DNA from: a virus
Virus record (IMG/VR): IMGVR_UViG_3300045988_069456
Strand: one strand, 5' to 3'
Length of the DNA stretch: 61,867 nucleotides
Part shown: positions 7,828 to 44,135 of the stretch, piece after piece
Position numbering within the stretch: the first letter of the stretch is position 1
How the letters are laid out: every line of letters begins with the position of its first letter
The notes under the pieces: model-generated
Databases searched by the model: none
What the model was told of the DNA's origin: nothing
The model's input: only the letters and a program-made list of their open reading frames with translations
Made by a program: the position numbers and the translations under genes

Positions 7828-10800
7828 TGCAATTTAAGAAGATACGGATCCGCAAAGCGACTGGCAAGAAGAAAAGTCAGGGCGGACAAAATGCGCTGAA
7901 CAAGCTGAACAGCTTCCTGAACGCGGCGTCCGCTGAACCGGCATATATTTTGCATAGCACATGGACCAACCAGCAAAATGCGATTACCTACAAGGAAATC
8001 CGCGAGGCTATAATGAACGGCCACATGAGCGAAAGCACTTTCCGACAGTGGCAGCAGGATTATAGCAAGATGGTAAGCGACAAGCTGTCCCCTGTATGGG
8101 TTAAAGCTATGGAAACGGCAAGCCTGGGCGTACAGGAACAGCATGACAGTTTTTTCTTTGATCACACATGGCCAGGGGTAACGAAGTGGGTTCAAGAGCA
8201 CGGCGCGGAGTTTGTGACGAACATAAGCGCTGAGCAAAAGAACGCAGTGAGCGCCCTGATCGCCAGAGCATACAGCAAGGGAGAGAGTGCGGAGGAGTTA
8301 TCCAGGGCAATACGCCCGTGCATAGGCCTGACACAGCGCCAGGCTATTGCAAACGCGAACTATTACGATCATGTGAAAGATTCCTTGCTAAAGAATAATC
8401 CAGGCATGAAAGAGGCCACAGCGGCCAAGAAAGCCCAGGAAGCAGCGGCCAAGTATGCAGCGCAACAGCACCGGTACCGTGCTAACATGATAGCGGAGAC
8501 AGAAATGGCGTTTGCATATCAGCACGGCGAGTATGAAGCAGTAAAGATGGCCCAGGCACAGGGCCTTATGGGCGTTGTGGAAAAGGTATGGTCAACAGCT
8601 TATGACGACGGCGTTTGCGATATCTGCAACGGGCTAGAGGGGCAGACGATAGGCATAGACGACAATTTTAATTTTAAGCTGAATAAATTACTTTTTGGAG
8701 GGCAAAGGCTGACACCACCGGCACATCCGCAGTGCAGGTGTGCGGTTGAGTATAGGGAGATTTCCCCGCCGGTAATACAGCCGGCACAGAGCCAGACACC
8801 GGGGCCAAGTATACCGGATCCGGCAACACCGTCCGTCCCTGGCAGCTTGCAAATGCCGCAGGGAATGAAAGACAAAGGTCTGGCGCACCTGGGAGGTACC
8901 GGAGAAATGCACTTGTGCGAGGACGGCAGCGGCACGGAATGGCTTTTCAAACCGGCGCAGTCCAAAAGCGGCACACCGGAAGAGTTCCGGGCCTATGTGC
9001 AGGAAGCTGGTTACAAGGTGCAGGGTATTGTGGATCCGGACACGGCCGTCAAGGTCGGCACCGGAAACATAGGCGGCCAGTTTGGCGCATACCAGCAGAA
9101 AATTGACGTGGACCCGAACGGGTTCGACTTCAAAGCCTGGCAGCAGTACGGCACCAAAGGCCTGACGGCTGACCAGGTGCAACAGATACAGCGGGAACAT
9201 GTTACAGACTGGCTGCTGGGGAACTATGACAGCCACGGCGGCAATTTTGTAACAGATACCAGCGGACGGCTGATCGGCGTAGACAAAGAACAGTCTTTCC
9301 GGTACATTACCGACAAGGCCAGCCAGAAAATGACATACGCATACCACCCCAACAGCAAGTATGGCGAAACAGAACCGCTGTACAACACTGTTTTTCGGAA
9401 GTATGCCAACAATGAGCTGGACCTAAACCCGCAGGACACCCTGGCATATATAAAACGGGTTGAGGCAATACCTGACAAGGAATACAGAGAGATATTCCGT
9501 GGCTATGCCGAAAGCCTGAAAGGCAAGGGAAAAGACGCGGAGCAGCTGCTGGACGCCATTGTGGAGCGCAAGCAGAACCTCCGGGAAACGTACCGGACAT
9601 TTTACACGGACCTGTTGACCCAGCGAACCGGTAAAAAACAGGCAGCTTTTGTGTGGGCGGACGAAGCACAGAACACGGCCAAGACCATCCAGGCGGCAAC
9701 GCATGACGTGGCAGCCCTGAAAAAGATGGGAAAAGCAGATCTGCTGCAGATGGCCAAGGCACAAAACATTGCCTATTGCAATAACATGAACAAACAGCAG
9801 CTCATTGATAGCTTGTCCGACCCGGTAAAGGCCAAACAGTGCAGCAAGGATGTACGGGACAGACTGGCGGCCAACCAGGCGGCCAGAAATGCCAAGACGA
9901 CACCGAAAGCACCGGCAGCAACCAATACAGGGCACTTGCCTCCAGGAACCAAAACGGCCGAGGATGTATTTACAGATTTTGACAAGATACACCCAGGGCC
10001 AAAGCAGGGGCAGGCAGTATGGAGCGACGCGGACAAGGTTGAGGGCATGAACCTGAGTGCCCGCCGTATGATCATAGACGGAGACGTGCACTATGAGATT
10101 ACTGGCAAGCTGAGGTCAAGCGCCTGGGATGATGTACTGCAGAGGATGGACGGAGCAAACCCAACCGTGCCGGCACAGCGTATCAATATGAGTTTTGAAA
10201 CCACAGCTCCGACAGCAAGGGCATGGACAAGCAACACATTAGTTGAAACCCAGGCAAACATACACGGGGTTGTTACCTACCTGGATTCTTATGACCAAAA
10301 GTATGCATCTTTTGAGCTGTACAGTGGGAAGCAACAAGGCCTGCATTCCTGGGACGGTTATTTTAGAATCCGTGTCCGGAGCAGCGGGGATGGCGTAGCA
10401 GATGCCAAGAAAGCTGCAGAGCTGCTGAAAAAGGTAGGACTGGACGAAGTGACCAGGACGCCGACAGCAGCCGCAGAGGAAACCCTGAAAAAGGCAAGGC
10501 TTGTGTGGTCACAAGCACCTAACCGCGTGGACGAACTAAGGAATCTGGCAGGCAGCAGCCTGGTAAAGAAACTGGATGAAATAATCATCCAGGAAAATAT
10601 AAACGTTGTGCAGCTAGCTAGCATGAAGCTGCAGAGCGAATACAACGGCTATATAACCTATGTTGTGCCTGGGCTTGCAAAGGATCTGGAAAAGGCTGGC
10701 GCAAAATATGTATACCACAGTGTTTCCAGAGAGGGCGACGTTATAAAGATTTTGCAAAGCGGCGGAATTTCTTCGACCATGAGCAGAATCAAGCAGGGCA

Positions 10801-11252
10801 TACAGAACCCAGCCGGCGCCAGTATGTACTCCGACATGAGAACCGGAGGAGCTGACAGTGCATTTACCAGAGTGGCAACAGGACAGGCGCAGCGGATGAA
10901 AAAGAAATTTTCCGGTGCTAGTGTTTATGGAGATTACCAGATAAAAATGAGCACGGAAGTCCTGGAACGCACAGATTACTATGCTTTTGAATGGGATAGA
11001 TTTGGCGAGGTTGCGGACATAAGCCAATACGGAAAAAGTCCCATGCAATTTGTTAAGGACATGGAAAGCGGCTTCCAGGGAAGCAACGAAATCATGTTCC
11101 GAAACGGGATAGATAGCAGATATTTTACAGAAATTATGTGCAACAGCCGACAAGAGCGGCAGCACCTGTTGAGCGAACTTCACGCGCAGGGTATAATGGA
11201 CATAAACGGTATTGATATCGAAAAATTTATAACCGTAGGGAGTGGATTGTAA
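7827..11252 (+). CDS. polyvalent virion protein: MuF/SPP1 gp7 head-morphogenesis domain plus kinase-like, Rho_N/SAP-like and ART-like domains
   Basis: The MuF signature CDICNGLEGQ...PPAHPQCRCAV lies at aa 264-306. The kinase-like catalytic loop NYDSHGGNF and GVDKEQSF lie at aa 466-491. LKKMGKADLLQMAKAQNIAYCNNMNKQQLIDSL lies at aa 631-663. The C-terminus has candidate H-Y-E positions (VYHSVS, GASMYSD, SNEIMF). Confidence 0.8.
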   Translation: MQFKKIRIRKATGKKKSQGGQNALNKLNSFLNAASAEPAYILHSTWTNQQNAITYKEIREAIMNGHMSESTFRQWQQDYSKMVSDKLSPVWVKAMETASLGVQEQHDSFFFDHTWPGVTKWVQEHGAEFVTNISAEQKNAVSALIARAYSKGESAEELSRAIRPCIGLTQRQAIANANYYDHVKDSLLKNNPGMKEATAAKKAQEAAAKYAAQQHRYRANMIAETEMAFAYQHGEYEAVKMAQAQGLMGVVEKVWSTAYDDGVCDICNGLEGQTIGIDDNFNFKLNKLLFGGQRLTPPAHPQCRCAVEYREISPPVIQPAQSQTPGPSIPDPATPSVPGSLQMPQGMKDKGLAHLGGTGEMHLCEDGSGTEWLFKPAQSKSGTPEEFRAYVQEAGYKVQGIVDPDTAVKVGTGNIGGQFGAYQQKIDVDPNGFDFKAWQQYGTKGLTADQVQQIQREHVTDWLLGNYDSHGGNFVTDTSGRLIGVDKEQSFRYITDKASQKMTYAYHPNSKYGETEPLYNTVFRKYANNELDLNPQDTLAYIKRVEAIPDKEYREIFRGYAESLKGKGKDAEQLLDAIVERKQNLRETYRTFYTDLLTQRTGKKQAAFVWADEAQNTAKTIQAATHDVAALKKMGKADLLQMAKAQNIAYCNNMNKQQLIDSLSDPVKAKQCSKDVRDRLAANQAARNAKTTPKAPAATNTGHLPPGTKTAEDVFTDFDKIHPGPKQGQAVWSDADKVEGMNLSARRMIIDGDVHYEITGKLRSSAWDDVLQRMDGANPTVPAQRINMSFETTAPTARAWTSNTLVETQANIHGVVTYLDSYDQKYASFELYSGKQQGLHSWDGYFRIRVRSSGDGVADAKKAAELLKKVGLDEVTRTPTAAAEETLKKARLVWSQAPNRVDELRNLAGSSLVKKLDEIIIQENINVVQLASMKLQSEYNGYITYVVPGLAKDLEKAGAKYVYHSVSREGDVIKILQSGGISSTMSRIKQGIQNPAGASMYSDMRTGGADSAFTRVATGQAQRMKKKFSGASVYGDYQIKMSTEVLERTDYYAFEWDRFGEVADISQYGKSPMQFVKDMESGFQGSNEIMFRNGIDSRYFTEIMCNSRQERQHLLSELHAQGIMDINGIDIEKFITVGSGL

Positions 11253-11674
11253 TGGACGACAGAAAAGCATACTGGTTTGAACAGCCGCACATGCCTGGCA
11301 TGTTTAATGTGGCCGTGCAGCCTATTGCGGATCCGCGGGACGGGCGCCTGCATTTTGCGGTGCCTGCTTCCGGTATATGGGCCTTGACCGGAAAAGTGAT
11401 CAAGGACACCGGGGACTATTTTGAATTTGAGTGTAATGACAGCGTTATGGGTGCCAGAGGCGGCACCTATAAATTTTCTGCACTGGATATTAAGACATTC
11501 CGGAAAGAGACATGCAAATGGATAGCCCAGGGAAAAGAAATTGCTGAGTGCTGCCAGAACACAGCAGATCTGCATTTCTGGTACCGGAAGAACTGGCCGA
11601 ACCCACGTGTCTATGAAATAGGCGAGTGGGAAATGAAAGAGAACCAGCGGAAGAAACGCCGCACGGACATTTAA
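11252..11674 (+). CDS. hypothetical protein
   Basis: TAATG-coupled to the upstream gene. 140 aa with no recognisable motif. Confidence 0.5.
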   Translation: MDDRKAYWFEQPHMPGMFNVAVQPIADPRDGRLHFAVPASGIWALTGKVIKDTGDYFEFECNDSVMGARGGTYKFSALDIKTFRKETCKWIAQGKEIAECCQNTADLHFWYRKNWPNPRVYEIGEWEMKENQRKKRRTDI

Positions 11675-32028: not shown

Positions 32029-33120
32029 ATGCAGTACGATTTAGCAGAATTTGCCCTGAAAATGGTAGCACCTAACAACAAGCTGATTTATGACGACAAG
32101 GGGATCCCGTCCGTTATGGTTTACGTGCCTAAGTTTAAAATGAGCGACGTGATCGACGGCGCCGGAGACAGCACGCACCCAGCCTTTATCGTGAATGGTA
32201 AAGAGGTACCGGGAATCTGGATCAGCAAATACCAGAACATTGTAAACAATGGCCGTGCGTACTCCCTGCCTGGCCAGGATCCAACTGTAAACATTACCTG
32301 GGACACTGCCAGAGGATATTGTGAATCCAAGGGAAAAGGCTGGCACATGATGACTAAGGCAGAGTGGGCCGCAATTATGCTCTGGTGCAAAAAGAACGGT
32401 TTCCAGCCATGGGGAAACAATAACTATGGCAAGGACAGCAGAGAGACGCTGCAGCAGGCTATTCCGGCGACCTATGGATCCGACGGAAAAATCAACCATG
32501 TGCTGACTGGTACCGGCCCGCTGACCTGGTCCCACAATAAACAGCTTGATGGAATTTGGGACCTGAACGGAAATGTTTCTGAGTGGACAGGCGCACTCCG
32601 TACTGTAAAAGGAGAGCTGCAGTTACTTGAAAACAACAACGGCGCCAACAGCGACAATCCGCAGACAGCAACAAGTACCGCATGGAAAGCCATTGACGCA
32701 ACCACCGGCGCATTTATTACGCCAGACGGAAACGGAACAACCGAGAACAGTATTAAAATTGATGCAGCAGGAACCGGCGGCGCCCAGTGGTGCAAAACTA
32801 TTACAAAGACATCTGAGAGCTTTAGCTGTCTGCTGGGTTCCATGACCTGTTCCGCAGACATTTCCGACGCTGCAAAGGCAGTGTTGAGAGCATACGGTTT
32901 GCTGCCAGTAGATGGAGCAAAACCAGCTGATTATGACGACGACAGATTGTACTTTAACAATGTGGCGGATGAGCGCTTGTTCAACTCCGGTGGCTACTAC
33001 ATCGGCGGCGGCGCGTACGCGGGTGTCGGTTACGGTAGCGGCTGGACGAACCGTGGCAACGTGTACGTGATCATCGGCTGGCGCTCCGCTTATGTGGATC
33101 TGGAATCTGTTGGCCTGTAA
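32029..33120 (+). CDS. DGR target protein, FGE-sulfatase / C-type-lectin-fold receptor-binding candidate
   Basis: 363 aa. Motifs GKGWHMMTKAEWAAIMLWC and GIWDLNGNVSEWTG. The C-terminal 40 codons form the VR. Confidence 0.85.
   Translation: MQYDLAEFALKMVAPNNKLIYDDKGIPSVMVYVPKFKMSDVIDGAGDSTHPAFIVNGKEVPGIWISKYQNIVNNGRAYSLPGQDPTVNITWDTARGYCESKGKGWHMMTKAEWAAIMLWCKKNGFQPWGNNNYGKDSRETLQQAIPATYGSDGKINHVLTGTGPLTWSHNKQLDGIWDLNGNVSEWTGALRTVKGELQLLENNNGANSDNPQTATSTAWKAIDATTGAFITPDGNGTTENSIKIDAAGTGGAQWCKTITKTSESFSCLLGSMTCSADISDAAKAVLRAYGLLPVDGAKPADYDDDRLYFNNVADERLFNSGGYYIGGGAYAGVGYGSGWTNRGNVYVIIGWRSAYVDLESVGL
32972..33090 (+). repeat. DGR variable repeat (VR), 119 nt
   Basis: It aligns to the TR at 33567-33688. 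All 10 substitutions lie at TR adenines, and one codon is missing. Confidence 0.9.
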
Positions 33121-33173
33121 TCTGATAGGGACGCGATAGCGGACCGATAAGGCCAACTAGATGCAGGAGGAAC

Positions 33174-33545
33174 ATGGAAGAGGTACAGATTGAAAATCGG
33201 GATGGGGACAGAGATCCCCTCCTGATTTTAGGAAAAATTGAAGATATGATGTTATACGCCTATCCGGTACTAAATGCGTACCCGAAGTATGAAAGATTTG
33301 TTTTAGCGGCAGACATAAAGCGGTGTATGGACCAGGCAATGGAAAGAACCATTGAAGCGAATAAAAAGTATTACAAGAAAACCACTTTGCAGGAGCTGGA
33401 CGTGGAAATTGACAAGCTGAGAAAATACGTTCGCCTTTCATACCGGCTGAAATATATTGATTTCAAGAAATATAAGCAGTGGAGCGAACAGGTAAACGAG
33501 ATAGGCAGAATGCTCGGCGGATGGATGGCGAGCGTTAAAAAATAA
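33174..33545 (+). CDS. avd: accessory variability determinant (Avd)
   Basis: 123 aa and helical. The C-terminal IGRMLGGWMASVKK is typical of Avd / 23S-IVS four-helix-bundle proteins. It lies between the VR and the TR. Confidence 0.8.
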   Translation: MEEVQIENRDGDRDPLLILGKIEDMMLYAYPVLNAYPKYERFVLAADIKRCMDQAMERTIEANKKYYKKTTLQELDVEIDKLRKYVRLSYRLKYIDFKKYKQWSEQVNEIGRMLGGWMASVKK

Positions 33546-33566
33546 ATAACGTAGGGAATGGGATAT

Positions 33567-33688
33567 AGCGCTTGTTCAACTCCGGTGGCAACTACAACGG
33601 CAACGGCACGAACGCGGGTGTCGGTTACAGTAACGGCAACTGGACGAACCGTGGCAACGTGAACGTGAACATCGGCTGGCGCTCCGCT
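33567..33688 (+). repeat. DGR template repeat (TR), 122 nt, non-coding
   Basis: It carries 29 adenines and 11 in-phase AAC triplets. It starts 21 nt after the avd stop. Confidence 0.9.
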
Positions 33689-33905
33689 CTACCCCCATAC
33701 GCCAGATACAGGAGCGCCCACGGACGCCCTGGCAGTGCAGGGGGATAAAGGATCTCGTTCCCACGCTTTACAATGAGCGAAAAAGGAAAACAGCAGTGAT
33801 GGCACCAAGGGGAGTCCCTTGTGCGTGGGTTATGTTTTGCAAAAGCAGAGCCGCTGGCCCATCCGGAAGTAGAATACAGCGAAACCTGCACCACTGTAAA
33901 AAAAT

Positions 33906-35063
33906 ATGACAATTAGAAACGTATATTATGAGATAACCTCATTTCACACACTAATGGTCGCAGATACCCATGTATCAAAAGGCAAAAGGGAGAACACAGA
34001 AAGGCTGAGATTTTACGACAATAGAGAGGGAAACCTGGAAGAAATAAGCACTCTGTTGAGGGCTGGAAAGGTACCAAAAGTCGAATATCACAGCTTTTAT
34101 GTATACGTGCCAAAGGTGCGGAAAGTTATATTTATTGACTACTGGTCCAAAGTGGTACAGCGGGCAATATATGACGTGCTGAATCCTAAAATATGCCGGA
34201 CGTTCATAGAACATACCTATGCGTGCGTAAAGGGACGCGGGCAGCTGGCAGCCATGGAACAGCTTTATACCTGGATGCGAGAAACCAGGACGTCCGGAAC
34301 CGAATGGTATTATTACAAGTTTGATGTTACAAAATTCTTTTACCGCATTGACCATGAAATACTTATGGATATTTGCAGGAAAAAGATAGATGATCCGCGA
34401 ACCGTTGACTTGTTGGGGTATTACATAAACAATGATGCGGTTCCGTTCGGTATGCCATTGGATGCAAACCAGCTGACAATTACCGAGGAGCAAATGCTGT
34501 ATGATTTAGGAATACCTATCGGCGGCGGCCTGTCCCATATGCTGGGTAATATGTATCTGGATCCACTTGACCAGTTTTGCAAGAGGGTACTGGGAATAAA
34601 ACGGTATATCCGGTACATGGACGACATTATAATCCTGGACAATGACAAGGAACGCCTGAAAGAATACGGCAGAAGAATGACACAGTTTTTAGAGGAGCGG
34701 CTGCACTTAAATTTCAACAACAAGACAGCGCTCCGGCCGGTGCGGGTTGGTTGTGAGTTTGTTGGTTTTGTTATTTATAACGACCATGTAATCCTGAGAA
34801 AAAGCACAACGCTTCGGATGAAGAGAACTCTCCGGAAAACGCGCCAGGACTACCACGACAACCTGATCACATTCAAGGAGGCAAACGCAACCATGCAGAG
34901 CTACCTGGCCATGCTGAGCCATGTGGATTGTAAGAAATTTAAGGAGAAATTGCTGGACGAATTTGTATTGACCCATGCGGATGATAATGGAGAGGAGCAG
35001 ATCATAAACGTGATTGAAACGGGAGGAATAGGAGCACTTGATTATGAAACAATGTATTGCTGA
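33906..35063 (+). CDS. DGR reverse transcriptase
   Basis: 385 aa. YMDD is at aa 237-240, and motif 4 reads IGGGLSH at aa 205-211. It is adjacent to the TR. Confidence 0.9.
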   Translation: MTIRNVYYEITSFHTLMVADTHVSKGKRENTERLRFYDNREGNLEEISTLLRAGKVPKVEYHSFYVYVPKVRKVIFIDYWSKVVQRAIYDVLNPKICRTFIEHTYACVKGRGQLAAMEQLYTWMRETRTSGTEWYYYKFDVTKFFYRIDHEILMDICRKKIDDPRTVDLLGYYINNDAVPFGMPLDANQLTITEEQMLYDLGIPIGGGLSHMLGNMYLDPLDQFCKRVLGIKRYIRYMDDIIILDNDKERLKEYGRRMTQFLEERLHLNFNNKTALRPVRVGCEFVGFVIYNDHVILRKSTTLRMKRTLRKTRQDYHDNLITFKEANATMQSYLAMLSHVDCKKFKEKLLDEFVLTHADDNGEEQIINVIETGGIGALDYETMYC

Positions 35064-36613: not shown

Positions 36614-36642
36614 GGTCGCCTTTTCCTATGGGAGGGACGTAC

Positions 36643-38142
36643 ATGACAGAGCAGGAATTTATCAGCTTTATGGGGCCACTGGCGCAGGCAGACATGGCAA
36701 AAAGTGGCGTGCTGGCTTCAGTAACAACGGCGCAGGCAATCCTGGAATCCGGTTACGGTAGCACAGAGCTGGCCAGAAATGCAAACAACTTTTTTGGGAT
36801 GAAATGCAGCTTATCCGGGAATGCCTGGCCAGGAAGTACCTGGGACGGCGTAAGCAAGTACCGGAAGCAGACCGGAGAAGAGGACGCGAACGGGAACGCC
36901 TACACAATTACAGCAGATTTCCGGAAATATGTGAGCGCTGCCGACAGTGTGGCGGACCACAGCGCATATTTACTGGGCGCCATGAATGGCAACAAACAGC
37001 GTTATGCAGGCCTGAAAGGAGAAACGGATCCGGCGAAAGCTATCGGAATCATTAAGGCAGGCGGATATGCAACAGATACAAAGTATGTGAGTAAAGTCCT
37101 GAGTATTATCAACAAATATAATTTGACGAAATACGACCAGGCAACAAAGGGAGGAGTGAGCAACTTGAAAATTAACCAGAACCCGAACTTCGGAACACAC
37201 AACACAAGCCCACGCAGCGGAGGAATTGAGTACATTGTTATCCACTATGTAGGTGCAACAGGTACCGCAAAGAACAATATCGACTATTATAATCAGCGCA
37301 GCACGACACAGGCCAGTGCTGATTTTTACGTCGGTTTCGAGGGAGAAATCTGGCAGTATAACCCGAACCCGAAAGCCCGTTACTGTTGGGCTGTAGGCGG
37401 CGGCAGACAGTCCAGCCAGGGCGGCAGCTTGTACGGCGTGGCCAGAAATGCCAACAGCGTGTCCATTGAAATGTGCGTAAGAAACAAAGGAAACAAAAAC
37501 GCAAACAGCAAAGACTGGTATTTTGAGCAGGCAACGATCAACAGCACTATTGAGCTGACTAAGTACCTCATGAAACTGTACGGCGTGCCAGCTTCCAGAG
37601 TTATCCGCCATTTTGACGTAAACGGTAAATATTGCCCTGGTGTATACGGATGGAACTCTGCAAGCGGATCTGAGAGCGCATGGAACGATTTTAAGAAGAA
37701 AATCGGCAGCGGTGCAGTAGCCACGCCAGCAACACCGGCACAGCCAACTACTGCAAAGAAATATTACAGAGTCCGCAAGACCTGGGCGGATGCAGCAAGC
37801 CAGAAAGGTGCTTTTACCAGCCTGGCAAATGCCAAAGCGTGTGCTGATCAGAACAGCGGTTATAAAGTGTTTGACTGGAACGGCAGCCAGGTTTACCCGG
37901 CGGCAGCATTCCAGCCGTACCATGTGCGTGTTGAAATTGCCGATTTGAGAATCCGAAAGGGTGCGGGCACAAATTACGATTATTGGACAGAGAAAAACGG
38001 ACAGTCGAAGTATACCGGAAAAGGCACTTTTACAATCGTAAAGGAAAAGAACGGAGCAGGCGCGACAAAATGGGGTCTGCTGAAAGCATACGAGAAGAAC
38101 GCAGACGGCTGGATCAGTCTGGACTATGTAAAAAGGGTATAA
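36643..38142 (+). CDS. multidomain endolysin: glucosaminidase + N-acetylmuramoyl-L-alanine amidase + SH3b-like wall-binding domains
   Basis: Glucosaminidase motif: AQAILESGYGSTELARNANNFFGMK. Amidase_2 motifs: IVIHYVGATG, SVSIEMC, IRHFDVNGKYCPG. The C-terminus is SH3-like (GTFTIVKEKNGAGATKWGLL). Confidence 0.85.
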   Translation: MTEQEFISFMGPLAQADMAKSGVLASVTTAQAILESGYGSTELARNANNFFGMKCSLSGNAWPGSTWDGVSKYRKQTGEEDANGNAYTITADFRKYVSAADSVADHSAYLLGAMNGNKQRYAGLKGETDPAKAIGIIKAGGYATDTKYVSKVLSIINKYNLTKYDQATKGGVSNLKINQNPNFGTHNTSPRSGGIEYIVIHYVGATGTAKNNIDYYNQRSTTQASADFYVGFEGEIWQYNPNPKARYCWAVGGGRQSSQGGSLYGVARNANSVSIEMCVRNKGNKNANSKDWYFEQATINSTIELTKYLMKLYGVPASRVIRHFDVNGKYCPGVYGWNSASGSESAWNDFKKKIGSGAVATPATPAQPTTAKKYYRVRKTWADAASQKGAFTSLANAKACADQNSGYKVFDWNGSQVYPAAAFQPYHVRVEIADLRIRKGAGTNYDYWTEKNGQSKYTGKGTFTIVKEKNGAGATKWGLLKAYEKNADGWISLDYVKRV

Positions 38143-38236
38143 TAAGCCCGTTGTCTATTCTGTATCTTTTCGGCAAGACTTTTTGTCTGTTATTCCGGGA
38201 TTTACAGAAATGAAAATATAGTGTAAAATGCGCCGA

Positions 38237-38296
38237 AGAGGGGGTTCTCAAGGGGGTCAGGCAAGCGCCTGAAACCTGGGAGCCACCCTCTTTTTT
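38237..38296 (+). terminator. terminator after the lysis cassette
   Basis: The outer stem is agaggg/ccctct, the inner hairpin is caggc-aagc-gcctg, and T6 follows. Confidence 0.5.
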
Positions 38297-38435
38297 GTGC
38301 TTAAAAATAGTTGTCTATCTTGTATCCTTTTCATGCACTTCACTACACTAAAGTTTGTCTATTCGGTCTATGGAATATAAACCGCCATTGGTTTATAATA
38401 AAGACAGTTGAAAGAGAGATATGGAGGTAACCGAA

Positions 38436-38765
38436 ATGAGTGTAGCAGAAACAATTTTACAGCAGTTAGGCGGCCAGAGATTTACAGCAATGACAGGCTC
38501 AAAGAATTACCTGGCAGACGGCAATAGCCTGAGAATGACACTTGCAAAGAACCACAGCAAGGCAAACCGCCTGACAATTACCCTTGACGAGGCAACAGAC
38601 ACATACCGGATGCGCTTTTATAAGTACACAGCGGGACGCCTGAACAAGAAAACCTTTGAATGGGTACCAGACAAAGTTGTTGAGGTAGCAGAGTTTGACA
38701 ATGTATATTGTGACATGCTGCAGGAACTGTTTACACAGGTAACATGGATGTATACCAGATTATAA
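38436..38765 (+). CDS. hypothetical protein
   Basis: ATG 38436 lies 8 nt after GGAGG; ATG 38421 is an alternative start. About 109 aa. Confidence 0.5.
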   Translation: MSVAETILQQLGGQRFTAMTGSKNYLADGNSLRMTLAKNHSKANRLTITLDEATDTYRMRFYKYTAGRLNKKTFEWVPDKVVEVAEFDNVYCDMLQELFTQVTWMYTRL

Positions 38766-38785
38766 GAAAGCGGAGGGCATGACAT

Positions 38786-39028
38786 ATGCAGATTAAAAGA
38801 TTGAGAAATACACATTTTGGAACCAAGAAAATCAGCCGCGTGGTAACAGGCTGGGCGCTGTACGAGCCGGGAAAAGGTTGGGTTGCCTTTAGCGCAGACC
38901 GTGACGAGCTTGGTATTTTGGTACCATACATCCCGTGCGGTGGCAAGAGAGCACTGCAGAGCATTTTGGATGCTGGCGGCTTTTGTAGCTTTGAGGGTAT
39001 GGAGTACGTGCAGGAGCTGGCGGCGTAA
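38786..39028 (+). CDS. hypothetical protein
   Basis: GCGGAGGG SD. 80 aa. Confidence 0.5.
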   Translation: MQIKRLRNTHFGTKKISRVVTGWALYEPGKGWVAFSADRDELGILVPYIPCGGKRALQSILDAGGFCSFEGMEYVQELAA

Positions 39029-39055
39029 GCTGCCGGATCCGGAAAGGGGAACGCT

Positions 39056-39319
39056 ATGAGTAAAGCACAGAAATATGGAATGTATGTAGAGATTGCGAAA
39101 AGAGCTGAGGAAAGCGGATTGTATACAGGCGAAAGATTGAGCTTGTTAATGGATATCGAAAGCGCAGACGAAAAGTTTAATTTAAGATTAGAGGAGTGGC
39201 TGGCCGCGGATGATTTTAACTTTATCCATGATCTTTATGGAATTATGGATCACATTGTAAGAGATAAATTCCCGGCGGATGATTTTGGCTTTTTTGTACC
39301 GAGATTCGCAGGTAGATAG
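39056..39319 (+). CDS. hypothetical protein
   Basis: 87 aa and acidic. Confidence 0.5.
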   Translation: MSKAQKYGMYVEIAKRAEESGLYTGERLSLLMDIESADEKFNLRLEEWLAADDFNFIHDLYGIMDHIVRDKFPADDFGFFVPRFAGR

Positions 39320-39330
39320 GAGGCAGCGAC

Positions 39331-39555
39331 ATGTTAGAGAAGAAAATCCGCAGGTATAAGGCAATGGAGCTGCACCGGGAAATGGTGCGAAAGGGACAGC
39401 TGGGAGCTGCAAAGCTCCTGCTGAGACTGCTGAGAAACGGCAGGGTGCACCTGGGGCTTGACAATGACTCGTGGATCGTTGAAAAGGCTTGCGAGGAACT
39501 GGGCTGTTATATTTATTATGACCGACGCGGATATAGCGCAACGGCTCACTTATGA
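39331..39555 (+). CDS. hypothetical protein
   Basis: TAGGAGG SD. 74 aa and basic. Confidence 0.5.
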   Translation: MLEKKIRRYKAMELHREMVRKGQLGAAKLLLRLLRNGRVHLGLDNDSWIVEKACEELGCYIYYDRRGYSATAHL

Positions 39556-39565
39556 GGAGGGCGGC

Positions 39566-39748
39566 ATGGTAAAAAGAGAATGGTACCGGGACCGATACAA
39601 CAGCAAGAAAACATGGGAGGTCGTAAAGATGGTAGGCGGCTACTATTTACGCCAGTATGTTGACGGGCAGCAGGTAAATACCGGACTCCGGACAACAAAG
39701 GCTTTTATTGCAAGCATTGGCATATTTGAATTTGAAAGAATCGCATAG
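39566..39748 (+). CDS. hypothetical protein (60 aa)
   Basis: ATG 39566 follows GAGGAGGG. Confidence 0.45.
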   Translation: MVKREWYRDRYNSKKTWEVVKMVGGYYLRQYVDGQQVNTGLRTTKAFIASIGIFEFERIA

Positions 39749-39760
39749 GAGGACAAAGTT

Positions 39761-40717
39761 ATGACGAATTTAGCAAACAAAATCGGCGGCGCATTATTTG
39801 GTGTAGCAGTAGGGGACGCACTGGGCGCCCCGCTGGAATTTATGAACGCAAAGGAAATCCAGCACAAGCACGGAACCGTGAAAGAAATGATCGGTGGCGG
39901 ATGGCTGAACGTAAAGCCGGGAGAAGTTACCGACGACACGCAAATGACGATCGCAGCAGCCCTGGGCGTAGCAATGCACCCGGATAATCCGGAGCCGTGG
40001 GCGGGCAAGCACTTTGCAGAGTGGGCCATGGGTGGCCCGAAAGATATCGGCGGCACCTGCCGCAGTGCGATCACAAACGCCCTGCAGATGATGCTGAGAC
40101 GGCCAGATCTGAAAGACTGCAAGGGCCTGGCGCCATATGAGCTATGGGAACAGGCAGCACAGTTGACAGCCCAGCAGAACGGCAACAGAAGCGCAGGCAA
40201 TGGCGCCCTGATGCGTACCGTGTACCCTGGCCTGTACTATACAGACGAAAGCAGAGCCGTAGAGGTTGCGGACAGAATCGGACGCCTGACACACTGGGAC
40301 GACCTGAGTGCGGAGGCTTGCCAGCTTTATACAAAAATGATATACTATTTAATCATGCACCATGCAGACCCGGTGCAAAAACTATGCAACGGGCTGAATG
40401 ACATAACCAGGGGCACACGGTACAGCCGCAAAGCTGAACCTGCAAAGCTGAACCCCAGCGGTTTTGTGGTTGACTCACTGCATTGTGCGCTGCACTGCCT
40501 GAGAAGAACAAAGAACTTTGAGGCGGCCGTAGTGATGGCAGCAAACATGGGCGGAGACGCTGACACCATAGCAGCCATTACAGGAGGGCTGGCAGGAGCC
40601 TTGTATGGATATGAGAGAATCCCGCTCCGGTGGCGTATGCTACTGGATAGCGACACCAAGAGCACACTGATCAGCCTGACAGGAGACGCAGCAAGGAACC
40701 ATGGAGGCAATAAGTAA
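39761..40717 (+). CDS. ADP-ribosylglycohydrolase (DraG/ARH family)
   Basis: N-terminal motif GALFGVAVGDALGAPLEF and C-terminal motif ANMGGDADTIAAITGGLAGALYGYERIP, both hallmarks of the family. Confidence 0.85.
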   Translation: MTNLANKIGGALFGVAVGDALGAPLEFMNAKEIQHKHGTVKEMIGGGWLNVKPGEVTDDTQMTIAAALGVAMHPDNPEPWAGKHFAEWAMGGPKDIGGTCRSAITNALQMMLRRPDLKDCKGLAPYELWEQAAQLTAQQNGNRSAGNGALMRTVYPGLYYTDESRAVEVADRIGRLTHWDDLSAEACQLYTKMIYYLIMHHADPVQKLCNGLNDITRGTRYSRKAEPAKLNPSGFVVDSLHCALHCLRRTKNFEAAVVMAANMGGDADTIAAITGGLAGALYGYERIPLRWRMLLDSDTKSTLISLTGDAARNHGGNK

Positions 40718-40890
40718 TGGAAGCTGTTTTAAAACTGAGTTTTTCTGACGAAAAAGGAATAAACTGTTGCGCGTGCATGTTGAGCTTTTCCAAAGGAGAG
40801 CATTACCATTGTGCGGCAATCGGGCAAAGACCTATTTGCCCGGAAGAAGGTCGCAGAAGAGATTGCCCTTTGAAGGGAAGGAAAGAATAA
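40717..40890 (+). CDS. Cys-rich 57-aa protein
   Basis: TAATG-coupled at both ends. Sequence: MEAVLKLSFSDEKGINCCACMLSFSKGEHYHCAAIGQRPICPEEGRRRDCPLKGRKE. It is below the ORF-track cutoff. Confidence 0.4.
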   Translation: MEAVLKLSFSDEKGINCCACMLSFSKGEHYHCAAIGQRPICPEEGRRRDCPLKGRKE

Positions 40891-41090
40891 TGGGATATGG
40901 TAGAAAATTAAAAGGCACGTCGCGCCGTGTGCCTATAACAGTACACACACCGCTTGATCGGCTTGATGTGATTGACGAGTACGTGGAAGAAAGGCGCCAG
41001 CAAGAGGGAAAAGCATACAGCCGATCTGATTTTTACGAGGAGGCAGCCGCCTTGTATCTTGAAAAGCTGGGAAGAGGGCAATCGGAATGA
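40890..41090 (+). CDS. ribbon-helix-helix (CopG/Arc-like) DNA-binding protein
   Basis: 66 aa. RRVPITVHTPLDRLDVIDEYV followed by SRSDFYEEAAALYLEK fits a beta-strand, helix, helix pattern. Confidence 0.65.
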   Translation: MGYGRKLKGTSRRVPITVHTPLDRLDVIDEYVEERRQQEGKAYSRSDFYEEAAALYLEKLGRGQSE

Positions 41091-41091
41091 T

Positions 41092-41302
41092 GTGTACCAA
41101 AATTGTACCGGAAATTTTGAGAGCCAGAAAATCCTCAAATAATAAAAATAATAAAAACAATAAAAACGTGTATGAAACATACAAAAACAGTAGCCGCTAA
41201 AACGTTGTTATTGAGTTTGAATAATTGCAAAAAGCCTGGAAACCATTGAAAAATAAGAGTTTCCGGGCTTTTGCTTTGTCCAAGTGTACCAGAAGTGTAC
41301 CA
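41092..41302. other. candidate attP region
   Basis: There are two pairs of direct (G/T)TGTACC(A/G) 8-mers with 11-bp phasing (41092/41103 and 41284/41295). They flank an AT-rich segment with AATAAAAA-type tandem units, just downstream of int. Confidence 0.3.
41232..41270 (-). terminator. terminator of the integrase operon (possibly bidirectional)
   Basis: A 12-bp stem aagcctggaaac / gtttccgggctt (one G-U pair). On the minus strand it is followed by TTTTTG. Confidence 0.5.
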
Positions 41303-41312
41303 CATTCCAAAA

Positions 41313-42428
41313 TTATAGGCTTTTTTGTGCATTTTGCCATGCTGCCGGAGACAGATCGGCGGCGGCACTGTCCTGAAGCTGCTGGGCCACATTACCATGC
41401 ACATCCGGGTACAGATGGCCATATAGCTCCAGGGTGGTTTGTACCTTTTCGTGCCCCAGGCGCTCCGACACGGCCAGGATAGGAAAGCCCATGTGAATGA
41501 GCAGGCTGGCGTGAGAGTGGCGGAAATCATGCACACGAATTTTCTTGACGCCGGATTTTTTACAGCCGGCACGGAGCTGGGAGTTTACCCAGCTTTTTGT
41601 AAATGGAAATAGCCGGTCGTCCGGATCGTATTCCAGAAGCCGGCCAGCATAGTCCTGAACAATAGCGCAAAGGAAATCCGGCAGGGTAATATCGCGCTTG
41701 CTTTTTGGCGTTTTTGGCTCGTATATGACTTCCTGGCCATTGGCCACTGCAAAGTTTTTTGTGATATGCAGCACCTGATTAGTGAAGTCGAAGTCAGACA
41801 AGCTGAGCGCCAGCAATTCCCCCTCGCGGATGCCAGTATAAAACAGGATGTTAAAAGCACAGTATGGCGTTGGCTTATCTATGGCCTGAATGAAAGTTTT
41901 GAACTCGTCCTCGGTCCAGAATAGCATAGTATCCGCTTTTGATTTTCCCATGCTGCCAGCAACAGCCGCCGGACTGCCTGGGAGGCCGTAGTATTTGACG
42001 GCATAGTTAAGAATAGCGGCAACCTGGTTGTTGATAGTTTTCAGATATGTTTTTGAGTACGGTTTACCATTTGGCTGCCGCAGCTCCATGAGCGTGTTTT
42101 GCCAGTTGCGGATCATGAGCGGTGTGATCTGGTTTATTGGCGTGTTGCCGAAATAGGGCAGCAGTTTTTTTGTAATAAGGTGCTGCTTATTTTCCCAGGT
42201 GGTGGCGCGCAGCCTGGTTTTACAATCTGCCATATACAACTCTACCAGGGAAGCGAACGACATGTCACAAGATGCAGCCGCTTTTGTAAGAAATTCGCGT
42301 TCCCACTCCTGGGCTTCCCGTTTGGTTATGAAGCCCGTTTTTTTCTTTTGCACCCTTTTACCGGTCCAGTCGGTGTACCTGAATTTGCTGTACCACTTGC
42401 CGGTTTTGGGATCTTTAGCCACTGACAT
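41313..42428 (-). CDS. int: tyrosine recombinase / phage integrase
   Basis: 371 aa with an N-terminal SAM-like domain. Catalytic motifs: TGIREGELLAL, VHDFRHSHASLL, LGHEKVQTTLELYGHLYP. Confidence 0.9.
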   Translation of the reverse strand: MSVAKDPKTGKWYSKFRYTDWTGKRVQKKKTGFITKREAQEWEREFLTKAAASCDMSFASLVELYMADCKTRLRATTWENKQHLITKKLLPYFGNTPINQITPLMIRNWQNTLMELRQPNGKPYSKTYLKTINNQVAAILNYAVKYYGLPGSPAAVAGSMGKSKADTMLFWTEDEFKTFIQAIDKPTPYCAFNILFYTGIREGELLALSLSDFDFTNQVLHITKNFAVANGQEVIYEPKTPKSKRDITLPDFLCAIVQDYAGRLLEYDPDDRLFPFTKSWVNSQLRAGCKKSGVKKIRVHDFRHSHASLLIHMGFPILAVSERLGHEKVQTTLELYGHLYPDVHGNVAQQLQDSAAADLSPAAWQNAQKSL

Positions 42429-42627
42429 TTTCAGACTCCTCTGGGATGCGGTTGGCTATGACCGTTTCAAATTCCCGTAAATATTTAATATAGGCACCAT
42501 AATAAGTATAGCCGGAAGCTGAGGCCGGTACCGCGCCGCTTTTAATGAGCTTTGCGACGGCCAGATCATGCGCCAGCTGATCCGGAGCAACCGGAAAGGT
42601 GCCCGTAAGCATTTCTAAATTTTCCAT
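42415..42627 (-). CDS. hypothetical 70-aa protein upstream of int
   Basis: ATG 42627 lies 5 nt after GGAGG. It overlaps the int start by 14 nt. The longer track ORF runs into the intergenic repeat. Confidence 0.5.
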   Translation of the reverse strand: MENLEMLTGTFPVAPDQLAHDLAVAKLIKSGAVPASASGYTYYGAYIKYLREFETVIANRIPEESENVSG

Positions 42628-42652
42628 ACGAACCTCCATGTTAAAAATTAAA

Positions 42653-42761
42653 GCACGGTGCAAGTACAGTGCAGGCACAAGAAAAGCCCGGCTGAATCCT
42701 GAATCCTGATTCCTTATTCCTGATTCTAAAAACCATATGGTCGTTGCTGAGCAGCCGACCG
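42653..42761 (+). repeat. copy A of a 110-120 bp direct repeat (partner at 51580..51701); iteron block at 42692..42727
   Basis: Hand alignment gives flanks of 33/35 and 32/34 identical. The central block has five tandem heptamers: CTGAATC CTGAATC CTGATTC CTTATTC CTGATTC. Confidence 0.8.
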
Positions 42762-42790
42762 GTGCCCGCAAATGCACTTTACACCATTTA

Positions 42791-43759
42791 CTATTTTGCT
42801 GTCGAATGTATACCATCCGCAAAGGTTACACTGTTGCTGCTGTTTTGTGTGACAGACCAAGCATCCCCACTTTTTTCTGAACACCAATCCCATAATTTGG
42901 AATTATTAGAATCCAGGTACTGTACAGAAATTTTTGTATATGGCATAGATAGCGGATCGTTGTTGCAAAGCTGGTTGAAAACGTCAACGGCAGCAGTAAG
43001 TTCTTGCGCAGATTGAGCACCACATTGTTTGGTGTTTTCAGCAGATACTTGTACCGAAATAGCAGTGTCGCTTACTGAATAGCCAGCATTGTACGGAAAG
43101 CTGGACATAACCCAAAAGTAACCAGAGCGGTAATCTTCCGGAAGTGAATAGCCACTTGTACCATACTTTTCAGCCATTTCATACAGACTTTTATCCTGAG
43201 CGACAGAAAGATCGCGAGCGCCCAGCACAGCCATATAAAACTGATCGAAAATGCTAATTTTATCCTGGTCCTGCATAATGTTTATATGCGTTGCATTGAA
43301 TGAATAAACATTGTCATAACCAGAAATTCCAACATTGGCCATATCGTCGCCGGACATGAATGTGAAAGACATACTTGTATAAGAATTCCATATATCCGGT
43401 ATTTGTATAACACGCACTAAATCCCAAAAGAAACGGCGGGTATTTGCATTGAATTCCCCGGATGGTATATCCATTGTGACATATAGGCAGCTATCAGATT
43501 CCTGCAAGGTAAGGTTCTGATCCAGTGATGTGACAGAGCTATAAACAGAACCAGAGGAAACAGATGTTAGATTTTGCTCTGTTGCAGATAGATCCTCTTG
43601 TGAACCAACAGAGGAATGAGAAACTTCTGTTTGCTGTTGTGTTTCTGATGCTGAACTAGATTGCGCACCAGAACAGCTGGAACAGGAGAGAACAAGGACA
43701 CCCGACAGAAAAAGTGCTGTTATTTTATGGGGGGGGGTAAACAAATGTTTGCTTTTCAT
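42791..43759 (-). CDS. prophage-encoded lipoprotein (moron; superinfection-exclusion candidate)
   Basis: ATG 43759 lies 6 nt after GGAGG. It has a signal peptide and a lipobox (ALFLSGVLVLSC), followed by a Ser/Gln-rich linker. Its G+C is visibly lower than that of its neighbours. Confidence 0.7.
   Translation of the reverse strand: MKSKHLFTPPHKITALFLSGVLVLSCSSCSGAQSSSASETQQQTEVSHSSVGSQEDLSATEQNLTSVSSGSVYSSVTSLDQNLTLQESDSCLYVTMDIPSGEFNANTRRFFWDLVRVIQIPDIWNSYTSMSFTFMSGDDMANVGISGYDNVYSFNATHINIMQDQDKISIFDQFYMAVLGARDLSVAQDKSLYEMAEKYGTSGYSLPEDYRSGYFWVMSSFPYNAGYSVSDTAISVQVSAENTKQCGAQSAQELTAAVDVFNQLCNNDPLSMPYTKISVQYLDSNNSKLWDWCSEKSGDAWSVTQNSSNSVTFADGIHSTAK
43729..43737 (-). repeat. G9 (coding-strand C9) homopolymer in codons 8-11 of the lipoprotein gene
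   Basis: Counted directly in tattttatgg gggggggtaa. It encodes T-P-P-H. Confidence 0.9.
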
Positions 43760-43769
43760 AAAAAACCTC

Positions 43770-44135
43770 CTATTTTTTGTTTTTATCTGCCGCTTCTGCT
43801 TTTTGCAGAATTTTGGCATAGTCCGCAATACGAGCCTGATTTTCCGGAGAGAGTTCCGCCCAGTTGGATATCATTTCCATATCCCCGCGACTGAGCAGAT
43901 CGATTATTTTTGGAACCTCAAAGGAAGTGCCCTCGTAAGTGCGGTATTTTGTGCGGCCTAAGATGTAGTCAGTAGAAACCCCAAAGATATCCGCCAGCTG
44001 AACAAGTAGATCGCCGGATAGCTGCAAGGAGCCGTTTTCATATTTGGAAATTGCTGAATCTTTTACTTTAAGGCGCTGACCTAATTCAGCCTGAGTCCAA
44101 CCGCGCTCTTGTCGTAGAACTTTGATGTTGTTGAT
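43770..44135 (-). CDS. CI-like XRE-family repressor (apparent non-canonical ATC start)
   Basis: The HTH WTQAELGQRLKVKDSAISKYENG lies upstream of the first TTG at 44027. The frame opens after a TGA at 44166-44168. AGGAGG at 44144-44149 lies 8 nt before ATC 44135. Confidence 0.65.
   Translation of the reverse strand: MNNIKVLRQERGWTQAELGQRLKVKDSAISKYENGSLQLSGDLLVQLADIFGVSTDYILGRTKYRTYEGTSFEVPKIIDLLSRGDMEMISNWAELSPENQARIADYAKILQKAEAADKNKK

Follow-up and report, generated by a model that had tools for sequence, protein, structure and literature searches.

The locus lies in a window of 61,867 nucleotides of viral DNA (IMG/VR record IMGVR_UViG_3300045988_069456), the term window being used for the whole stretch that was analysed. 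Between the endolysin and integrase genes it includes the following features.

38143..38420, + strand, conserved control region, non-coding, separating the endolysin gene from the cargo unit
38151, 38183, 38311 and 38355, four TTGTCT[AG]T boxes
38201-38229, promoter-like site from a promoter scan, a consensus match of a kind found at background frequency
38235-38296, strong hairpin with a U-run (-43.3 kcal/mol, z=-5.05)
38421..39748, + strand, five small, tightly packed open reading frames (ORFs) that form part of the cargo unit with ARH
39761..40717, + strand, DraG-like ADP-ribosylhydrolase (ARH), 318 aa, cytoplasmic, Pfam PF03747
40717..40890, + strand, Cys-rich small protein (CxxC...C...C...CPL), 57 aa, in the slot between ARH and RHH
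40890..41090, + strand, probable ribbon-helix-helix (RHH; CopG-like) DNA-binding protein, 66 aa
41092..41109, + strand, first (P-arm) pair of arm-type repeats for the integrase, GTGTACC-N4-TGTACC, whose left end is 2 nt past the RHH stop
41207..41224, + strand, attP core, GTTATTGAGTTTGAATAA, where homology to integrated relatives ends
41227..41274, no strand assigned, hairpin of a bidirectional terminator, separating the attP core from the integrase gene (-22.9 kcal/mol, z=-5.72)
41284..41301, + strand, second pair of arm-type repeats, on the P' arm, at a distance of 192 nt from the P-arm pair that is kept in relatives
41313..42428, - strand, tyrosine integrase with an Arm-DNA-bind_4 domain

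The three ORFs at 39761-41090 are translationally coupled through overlaps, and both junctions are TAATG, exactly as described in the sequence-only reading of this DNA; the motifs quoted there (GDALGAPLEF, GGDADTIAAITGGLAGALYG and CCAC..HC..C..C) were all found in the translations. Comparison with diverged homologues gave dN/dS values of 0.06-0.18 across all three ORFs (0.06-0.17 for ARH), indicative of purifying selection.

The product of the first gene had been taken for a DraG/ARH-family enzyme, and this is borne out by a full-length match to Pfam PF03747 (ADP_ribosyl_GH; E=8e-64, 216.5 bits against a cut-off of 26.2), which aligns ARH residues 10-289 with positions 1-286 of the 287-position profile; all catalytic and metal-binding residues are present. 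ARH also matches phrog_6572 (E=2e-52), and its relatives in the PDB, with the catalytic residues aligned, include DraG (2woc, E=4e-40) and Tri1 (6dre, E=9e-29). The E-D-D and di-metal site is intact and consists of E26, T57-D58-D59-T60, D95 and G264-G265-D266-x-D268-T269. DraG residues E28, D60 and D97 align with E26, D58 and D95 of ARH, and D243, D245 and T246 with D266, D268 and T269; the roles of the catalytic and metal-binding residues in DraG have been described (PMC8120803), and PDB entry 2woe carries a mutation at D97. Loss of the metal-binding residues on alignment, raised earlier as grounds for doubting the enzyme, was not seen, D266, D268, T269 and TDDT being kept. The catalytic residues and GGDADT are invariant among 11 members of the clade.

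ARH thus shares its fold, the E-D-D residues and the TDDT and GGDADT motifs with DraG, the ADP-ribosyl-[dinitrogen reductase] hydrolase (PDB 2woc, 3g9d). DraG is its best sequence match, yet ARH scores 193 bits with the NCBIfam DraG equivalog TIGR02662, below the cut-off of 337, and it is phage-borne and paired with RHH, with neither draT nor a nitrogenase context in the window. Tri1, which gives immunity to the T6SS ADP-ribosyltransferase (ART) toxin Tre1, is a DraG-like Arg-ADP-ribosylhydrolase that reverses the modification made by the toxin and is not metabolic; it provides the functional model for a toxin-independent eraser. ARH covers positions 67-344 of the 361 in the Tri1 profile and so is without the N-terminal extension of Tri1 that occludes the toxin. 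Its score with the Tri1 equivalog NF041672 (135 bits) is below the cut-off of 490, and its locus is without adjacent ART or T6SS genes. Judged by its sequence, ARH very probably removes ADP-ribose from proteins, the most likely target being the N-glycosidic bond of arginine-linked mono-ADP-ribose.

ARH-fold enzymes such as ARH3 accept several O-linked ADPR derivatives. ARH might accordingly be considered a hydrolase of immune second messengers derived from ADPR (cyclic ADPR isomers of the Thoeris type or related molecules), and nucleotide signals are common targets of phages. However, the alignment of ARH3 to ARH is local only and DraG and Tri1 score far better, which places ARH far closer to the N-glycosidic Arg hydrolases. 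The literature found gives no ARH-fold precedent for anti-Thoeris activity, and the late/cargo position of the gene also speaks against this role, which is the least probable of those considered here.

The 57-aa Cys-rich peptide belongs to a real family, which comprises 31 clusters at 50% identity and has invariant C17, C20, C32 and C50-P-L. Its gene occurs without ARH or RHH in a number of loci (L029-L031 and L035-L043), and the protein is 91-96% identical to its homologues in phages without ARH/RHH, as compared with 81-83% in the closest ARH relatives of the window. Nucleotide homology to L029-L031 is limited to positions 40699-40896, and the GC content of the Cys-rich gene is 43.7% versus 55.2% for ARH. 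This gene is an accessory cassette that moves independently, is unrelated to the pair and occupies a variable slot. The three genes had been presented as one functional unit, which is not supported, since the cassette is missing or replaced in many ARH-RHH loci. The conserved core is a two-gene pair, ARH plus the probable RHH, rather than a three-gene operon.

The second member of the pair was confirmed as an ORF for 66 aa, while its identity as an RHH protein is graded as probable. No match was found in Pfam, PHROG or NCBIfam, and in the PDB the closest sequence match, to the RHH antitoxin MazE6 (E=0.011), is confined to the helix-2 stretch SRSDF..EAA..YL. In the AlphaFold2 (AF2) model of the monomer (mean pLDDT 73), an extended N-terminus is followed by helices at residues 24-39 and 45-59. 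The strand of the RHH fold would form only within the dimer. A Foldseek search with this model returned no significant match. The 66-aa protein is similar in size to CopG/Arc/MazE-type proteins and, like them, has a predicted strand (RRVPITVH), a basic arm at the N-terminus and, as modelled, two helices with the SRSDF..EAA..YL pattern in the second; it differs from them in the lack of a Pfam RHH match or support from the structure search.

A hidden Markov model of RHH located the gene adjoining ARH in 60 distinct loci/ARH sequences of Clostridia prophages. RHH is adjacent in 36 of 38 distinct ARH sequences at ≥50% identity and in 24 of 40 at 45-50%, and in none of 55 below 45%. The gene order is reversed in four loci. 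Conversely, five of five independently looked-up RHH homologues adjoin an ARH, and no RHH without ARH was found among the homologues looked up. The genes to the left of ARH and the slot between ARH and RHH vary across loci. RHH is therefore the constant partner of ARH, and this widely conserved pairing is absent from the sequence-only reading. Every example of RHH following ARH comes from a guaA-integrating phage, so that shared descent of the attP-proximal block could explain part of the conservation of the pair.

With its compact architecture of two overlapping or coupled ORFs, an order swapped in some lineages and a member whose best PDB match is an antitoxin, MazE6, the pair resembles a toxin-antitoxin or abortive-infection system, in which RHH would neutralise or repress a potentially harmful ARH. 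However, RHH, at 66 aa, lacks a C-terminal extension for binding a toxin, and PADLOC-DB defence models gave no match for ARH, the Cys-rich protein, RHH, MuF (see below) or neighbouring proteins. We know of no ARH-fold enzyme that has been demonstrated to be a toxin. An addiction pair of this kind is considered highly improbable. The most likely role of RHH, as far as its sequence and constant position can suggest, is that of a dedicated DNA-binding regulator of ARH, and autoregulation is plausible.

Candidate operators for RHH were sought in three places. In the region directly upstream of ARH no operator was found; in almost all loci the sequence just 5' of ARH is densely packed coding DNA with no promoter, and a dedicated promoter or operator 5' of ARH was rejected when the apparent gaps in some loci proved to be coding. 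The TTGTCT boxes of the control region were set aside because, in the loci examined, they are restricted to the clade with ≥69% ARH identity and could not be tied to RHH. The GTACC repeats beside RHH were likewise rejected as an operator, since each intact attP has a further pair next to int, at a distance of 191-192 nt; for the same reason they are read as integrase arm sites.

The attP core is identical to the 3' end of host guaA, from its last codons through the stop (VIEFE*), and all 13 PDB hits for the host flank of an integrated relative (L208) are to GMP synthase C-termini. Among the loci selected by integrase, most contigs stop at int, the P arm of one (L207) holds an IS and another (L210) adjoins a further element. 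In all members of the ≥50% clade the GTACC repeats of the P arm are overlapped by the RHH stop or begin within a few nucleotides of it, and an A-rich stretch with ~10-nt periodic repeats runs on to the core. This arrangement would suit an RHH that belongs with the integration genes and acts on the P arm, either in excision/directionality or architecturally, with ARH a mere neighbour. Against this, in a locus of reversed order (L146) it is ARH, not RHH, that lies beside the flanking host genes. In two other loci (L141 and L191) the pair is followed by phage genes on the opposite strand, with no integrase within ~4 kb. A directionality factor encoded at the end of a late/cargo unit would come too late to serve excision or, with constitutive synthesis, would destabilise lysogeny, and RHH without ARH was not found. 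This alternative is very unlikely.

The unit that contains ARH and RHH is placed between the endolysin gene and attP, with terminator hairpins at both ends. It is the last cargo before the attP of a temperate Lachnospiraceae/Ruminococcus phage that integrates at the 3' end of guaA, a position that the sequence-only reading did not note. No near-identical cultured phage was found, and a 95%-identical prophage copy is present in the cultured Ruminococcus sp. AF41-9 (QUDO01000007). The five ORFs at 38421..39748 encode proteins of 114 aa (phrog_9437), 80 aa, 87 aa (DUF6874), 74 aa and 96/70 aa, and the set differs among relatives. The control region at 38143..38420 that precedes them is nearly invariant in four relatives (L008, L011, L016 and L017) despite their differing lysins; it has no match in Rfam, and a search of 38000-41400 revealed no Rfam family. 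The interval between lysis genes and attP is the classical slot for lysogenic-conversion genes (morons). Of the features of a moron, the location and both terminator hairpins were found, and the promoter is a consensus match at background frequency.

Position also bears on the possibility that the phage uses ARH during infection as an orphan antitoxin, reversing the action of a host defence ART, for example a DarT-type enzyme modifying DNA, one acting on RNA or a protein-modifying toxin of a toxin-antitoxin system. Orphan erasers of ADP-ribose are known in phages, namely AdfN/NADAR in T-even phages and a DarG2-like macrodomain in chimalliviruses. An ARH-fold antitoxin, DarG3, is present in DarHTG systems, ARH genes are common across phages, including lytic jumbo phages, and in some relatives the pair adjoins Mrr_cat, helicase, HIT or NUDIX genes. 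Like these mobile-element erasers, ARH has no neighbouring cognate transferase. However, AdfN and the DarG2-like protein have other folds (NADAR and macrodomain, respectively), and DarG3, which has the same fold as ARH, lies inside the DarHTG operon. All three act on DNA, whereas the nearest relatives of ARH, DraG and Tri1, are hydrolases of protein arginine, and the phages with AdfN or the DarG2-like protein are lytic, whereas the phage in the window is temperate and has ARH in a cargo slot with RHH. Counter-defence genes are usually early. ARH is located at the distal end of the late/lysis side, downstream of a strong terminator, and a co-inherited RHH regulator is unusual among anti-defence genes. 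With no further cargo between the unit and attP, expression from the prophage, in lysogenic conversion or immunity, is favoured over early counter-defence, which is rather unlikely though it keeps some weight.

The sequence-only reading had also proposed ARH as the partner of a 1141-aa head protein with an ART-like C-terminus encoded 29 kb away. The distance was confirmed, the gene lying 28.5 kb upstream of ARH, and the protein has a genuine MuF N-domain (PF04233, E=3e-13, residues 142-307; phrog_28652, E=2e-64). The ART-like nature of the C-terminus was not confirmed: residues 708-1141 gave nothing relevant in Pfam (E≤10), NCBIfam, PHROGs, PADLOC, PDB sequence and profile searches or phage tblastn, and no ART or other family was detected there. 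The AF2 model of this part, built from an alignment of seven sequences, has a pLDDT of 44, too low to be of use, and only 16 homologues are present in the protein database. The single weak signal in the extension, PI3_PI4_kinase/HipA-like (E=0.015-0.11), is at residues ~440-500, outside the C-terminus. The muf gene is followed by another feature.

11252-11674, 140-aa ORF overlapping the muf stop

Were the C-terminal domain of MuF a packaged and injected ART, ARH could reverse its action in lysogens or in producer cells, in the manner of Tri1 against Tre1. C-terminal toxins are frequent on the MuF proteins of temperate phages, and 14% of these toxins are ARTs (Jamet et al. 2017). The C-terminal 260 aa of the protein in the window diverge faster than the remainder (87% versus 98-99% identity among close relatives), and the conserved YVYHSVSRE, GGISST and SNEIMFRNG loosely recall ART motifs when read by eye. 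Both long related contigs have the MuF and ARH genes, although descent alone predicts such co-occurrence in close relatives. The 140-aa ORF also diverges fast, as expected of a cognate immunity gene (91% versus 97-99% for its neighbours, and 79% in the distant L026), and it is syntenic in all relatives; no family was assigned to it with Pfam, PHROGs or NCBIfam. Because it co-diverges with the MuF C-terminus, this gene directly downstream appears a likelier partner of that C-terminus than ARH. Long, fast-evolving C-termini and small downstream genes are likewise found in the polymorphic MuF toxin-immunity modules (Jamet et al. 2017), from which the window differs in that its MuF has no recognisable toxin domain and ARH is 28.5 kb off, not adjacent. 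The ARH-RHH pair is also present in at least 10 further large phage contigs that were not recovered by the MuF C-terminus scan, a scan that recovers close relatives only. The partnership of ARH with MuF thus found no supporting evidence, and self-protection from its own head protein is an unlikely function for ARH.

An ART gene was found neither adjacent to the ARH-RHH pair nor among the window proteins scanned. Beside the ARH homologues that lack RHH, a 1435-aa neighbour in one locus (L125) was considered as an ART toxin and rejected, as by eye it resembles a secreted repeat protein.

The reading preferred here, to which we give about an even chance, is that ARH is an eraser of lysogenic conversion that reverses ADP-ribosylation, most likely of arginine, as an orphan immunity or antitoxin-like protein with an RHH regulator. 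ARH would be produced in the lysogen and late in infection, as its position and the terminators suggest, and RHH would set its expression as a DNA-binding regulator. As a toxin-independent eraser, ARH would undo modification by ADP-ribosyltransferases, candidates for which are injected toxins of phages or competitors and ARTs of host toxin-antitoxin and abortive-infection systems.

Bacterial conflicts make wide use of ADP-ribosylation, in toxins, toxin-antitoxin systems and phage defences. The phage-borne erasers proven so far have a NADAR or macrodomain fold and DNA as the target. A DraG-fold, probably protein-directed eraser whose pairing with a DNA-binding partner is conserved across many prophages of the gut would extend this theme, pointing toward lysogenic conversion and protein targets, and would help explain how lysogens tolerate ART toxins on MuF-type head proteins. 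The ARH-RHH pair is a compact module, and the attP/guaA site and the conserved control region provide handles for genetics.

A broader proposal, put forward tentatively and with low confidence, is that ARH-RHH may be an undescribed, widespread module of guaA-integrating prophages of gut Clostridia that makes lysogens broadly immune to Arg-ADP-ribosylating effectors. If so, the module would cover ART toxins injected from the heads of other temperate phages, whatever the toxin sequence, and would represent a "universal antidote" of the prophage or a new form of superinfection immunity that works on protein modification.

The window includes three ORFs at the attP side of the integrase gene:

39761–40717, DraG-like ADP-ribosylhydrolase (ARH), 318 aa
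40717–40890, Cys-rich peptide, 57 aa
40890–41090, small basic protein, probable ribbon-helix-helix (RHH) protein, 66 aa

The ORF calls agree exactly with the positions in the sequence-only reading, the TAATG overlaps that it claimed are read at both the ARH/Cys-rich and Cys-rich/66-aa junctions, and the motifs that it quoted are found in the ORFs. Comparison with diverged homologues gave dN/dS values of 0.06–0.17 for the ARH, 0.06–0.11 for the Cys-rich peptide, and 0.09–0.18 for the 66-aa protein, with dS saturated in several of the homologue pairs. All three ORFs are genuine genes.

The ARH has a full-length match to Pfam ADP_ribosyl_GH (E=8e-64) and also one to phrog_6572. Among solved structures it is closest to DraG from Rhodospirillum (E=4e-40) and from Azospirillum (3e-38); the Tri1 immunity enzyme comes next (9e-29), and the match to ARH3, a serine/O-linked hydrolase, is restricted to the C-terminal metal-binding helix (~1e-9 to 1e-13). 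In the alignment, the window ARH has E26, D58 and D95 opposite DraG E28, D60 and D97, the last of which is changed in PDB entry 2woe; the roles of the DraG catalytic and metal-ligand residues are taken from PMC8120803. The metal ligands TDDT and GGDADT are intact, and all of these residues are invariant in an 11-member alignment extending down to 53% identity. Loss of metal-binding residues, which would have spoken against the earlier proposal, was not seen, all ligands being aligned and intact. The enzyme looks active. It falls under the NCBIfam equivalog cut-offs for DraG and for Tri1 and hence is neither in the strict sense. Given that it aligns only to positions 67–344 of the Tri1 model, it lacks the N-terminal toxin-occluding extension of Tri1. 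A search of the PADLOC defence models with the ARH gave no match, and membership of the ARH family is in itself ordinary.

The 66-aa protein is probably an RHH protein, as first suggested. Its alignment includes a basic N-terminal arm (YGRKLKG.SRR), then a hydrophobic strand-like stretch (RVPITVH), and a second helix (YSRSDFYEEAA..YL), which are typical of CopG-type proteins. The sole match in a PDB profile search was the RHH antitoxin MazE6 (E=0.011), and AlphaFold predicted an extended N-terminus and two helices (pLDDT 73). Alignment, MazE6 match and predicted topology thus support the assignment, whereas no model in Pfam, PHROG or NCBIfam was matched and Foldseek gave no significant match.

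The three genes had been read as one functional unit, but the pair proves to be the ARH and the 66-aa gene, and the slot between them varies. In a broad set of loci, viral as well as bacterial, an HMM of the 66-aa protein matched the gene immediately next to the ARH.

Table. Adjacency of RHH and ARH genes. Counts are distinct ARH sequences, binned by identity to the window ARH.
ARH identity at least 50%: RHH adjacent 36, absent 2
ARH identity 45–50%: RHH adjacent 24, absent 16
ARH identity below 45%: RHH adjacent 0, absent 55

The RHH was truly missing from the exceptions checked (loci L125, L131 and L013), and four lineages have the reversed order, RHH then ARH, with overlapping ORFs. Independent sampling from the 66-aa protein gave 56 clusters, all at ≥59% identity; the ARH adjoins the 66-aa homologue in all five that were looked up. 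Left of the ARH, the genes vary by lineage, endolysin type included.

Reversed pairs adjoin an amidoligase-like gene (~316 aa) in loci L141 (254–3115) and L191 (2272–5945), and the L141 pair also a gamma-glutamylcyclotransferase-like gene (~160 aa), both named by sequence appearance only; the same two also lie near the end of another phage (L210, 5519–6948). In some relatives the pair is followed by genes for a HIT-family hydrolase, a ~680-aa Mrr_cat-like protein, AAA_11/12 helicase fragments or NUDIX (L203, 2211–4169; L015, 5342–8164; L206, 14212–17490), which may be defence or nucleotide-metabolism cargo.

The slot carries the Cys-rich gene in close relatives L002–L004, L008, L016 and L017, contains an unrelated 100-aa ORF in L005, and is empty in L001, L011 and L015. 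The Cys-rich gene belongs to a real family, which forms 31 clusters at the 50% identity level; C17, C20, C32 and C50-P-L are invariant in it, and C41 is present in at least 90%. Twelve of the 15 loci found in a scan of viral contigs lack both ARH and RHH in the vicinity, and the ARH-less loci inspected have early-type neighbours (DNA methylases, HTH proteins, genes near the small terminase). The window copy is 91–96% identical to three ARH-less copies, as compared with only 81–83% to those in its closest ARH relatives. Nucleotide homology with the ARH-less loci is confined to 40699–40896, and the GC content is 43.7%, versus 55.2% for the ARH. These features indicate that the Cys-rich gene is an independently exchanged cassette. 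Small phage proteins of this type (CxxC...C...C...CPL) are widespread, mostly among early, methylase or HTH genes (loci L029–L031 and L035–L043).

The surroundings of the cargo unit are as follows:

36628–38142, two-domain endolysin, upstream of the unit
38143–38420, non-coding region of 278 nt between endolysin and unit
41092–41109, GTACC-N-GTACC repeat pair, 2 nt past the RHH stop
41207–41224, 18-nt core GTTATTGAGTTTGAATAA
41284–41301, second GTACC repeat pair

An A-rich stretch lies between the first repeat pair and the core, a bidirectional hairpin (z=-5.7) lies 3' of the core, and the 3' end of a tyrosine integrase gene with an arm-binding domain follows the second pair. The repeat pairs are 191–192 nt apart, with the same spacing in at least nine other loci. 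Homology with integrated relatives ends exactly at the 18-mer, a copy of the final codons of the host GMP synthase gene, guaA; the host flank of one relative gives a 21-residue translation for which 13 of 13 PDB hits were extreme C-termini of GMP synthases. The repeat layout, homology break and host flank identify 41092–41301 as attP and the guaA 3' end as the site of integration.

The mapping covers the window and relatives L208, L016 and L008, and many relatives also integrate at this site. The attP hairpin constitutes a bidirectional terminator. In L207, an insertion sequence (4891–6078; 395-aa transposase-like ORF) splits the attP P arm, the integrase being 99% identical. At this guaA junction, the prophage has a tandem neighbour in L008 (7668–12954), L011 (7456–10930) and L004 (~8495–9547), namely an integrative-mobilisable-element-like gene set (HTH repressor, small ORF, tyrosine integrase, NikA-like, AAA_25, Mob_Pre). 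Each set brings a separate repeat pair with 11-nt spacing, TGATAAC or GGCTCTA.

In the prophage form, the cargo at the attR end finishes with the ARH-RHH unit, which is transcribed outward; this is the classical lysogenic-conversion slot, and the unit has terminators on both sides. Ruminococcus sp. AF41-9 carries a 95%-identical copy, and others are in Lachnospiraceae genomes. The region 38143–38420 includes a promoter-like site and a very stable hairpin with a U-run (-43 kcal/mol, z=-5), matches no Rfam family, and may control the unit as an attenuator, small RNA or operator. It also has four TTGTCT[AG]T boxes and is almost unchanged in relatives whose flanking lysins differ. The RHH gene abuts the attP P arm, as an excision factor might, but the reversed pairs and the timing make this role very improbable; a TA-like reading of the pair is slightly less probable still.

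At 42415–43828 (- strand), two genes upstream of the integrase and co-oriented with it encode proteins of 135 aa and 345 aa, the latter a probable lipoprotein or secreted protein with a Ser-rich linker. Neither matched a family; both are conserved in L005 and may act as surface or exclusion factors expressed during lysogeny. A diversity-generating retroelement is also present (32029–35063), and its reverse transcriptase occurs in relatives L008, L011, L016 and L146:

32029–33120, FGE-sulfatase/C-type-lectin-fold target protein
33174–33545, bAvd
33906–35063, reverse transcriptase

The ARH had further been proposed as partner of an 'ART-like' head protein:

7827–11674, 1141-aa MuF protein and overlapping 140-aa downstream gene

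This protein has a genuine MuF N-domain and a long extension, in which the only family signals are a Rho_N/SAP-like motif at 631–662 and a weak PI3/PI4-kinase/HipA-like match at ~440–500 (E=0.015–0.11). Pfam, NCBIfam, PHROGs and cultured phages gave no match to residues 708–1141, nor did sequence and profile searches of the PDB; only 16 homologues were found in the protein database, and AlphaFold on the resulting shallow alignment gave no usable fold (pLDDT 44). Thus, the 'ART-like' label is still an impression from motifs. Identity between close relatives is 87% in the last 260 residues, as against 93–99% elsewhere in the protein, and 91% for the 140-aa gene that overlaps the muf stop, as against 97–99% for its neighbours. 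This joint divergence is the pattern expected of a candidate effector and its adjacent cognate partner. ART domains occur in 14% of 191 MuF toxins and are well documented for temperate Firmicutes phages (PMC5576092), so that an ARH-MuF partnership is reasonable in kind. However, positive evidence for it was not obtained, and at least 10 other large phage contigs with the ARH-RHH pair were missed by a scan with the MuF C-terminus. As that scan recovers close relatives only, the link is weakened rather than refuted, and we consider it doubtful.

We favour, with moderate confidence, a role of the ARH as an eraser or immunity enzyme that would be expressed from the prophage, since it is a predicted protein-Arg-type hydrolase with an intact site, lies in attP-side cargo with terminator boundaries, and has a co-inherited putative regulator. 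Precedents are Tri1 (enzymatic immunity), AdfN and DarG2-like proteins (orphan ADP-ribose erasers of phages), and DarG3 (an antitoxin with the ARH fold). The main rival, counter-defence during infection, is unlikely given the late/cargo position of the gene and its protein-type relatives, and signal hydrolysis is the least probable of the roles. No description of the ARH-RHH pair, and no function for a DraG-fold enzyme in a temperate phage, was found in the literature. What is new is that, in Clostridia prophages integrating at guaA, the attP-proximal cargo is an ARH in steady pairing with an RHH-like protein, a testable variation on the 'orphan ADP-ribose eraser' theme.
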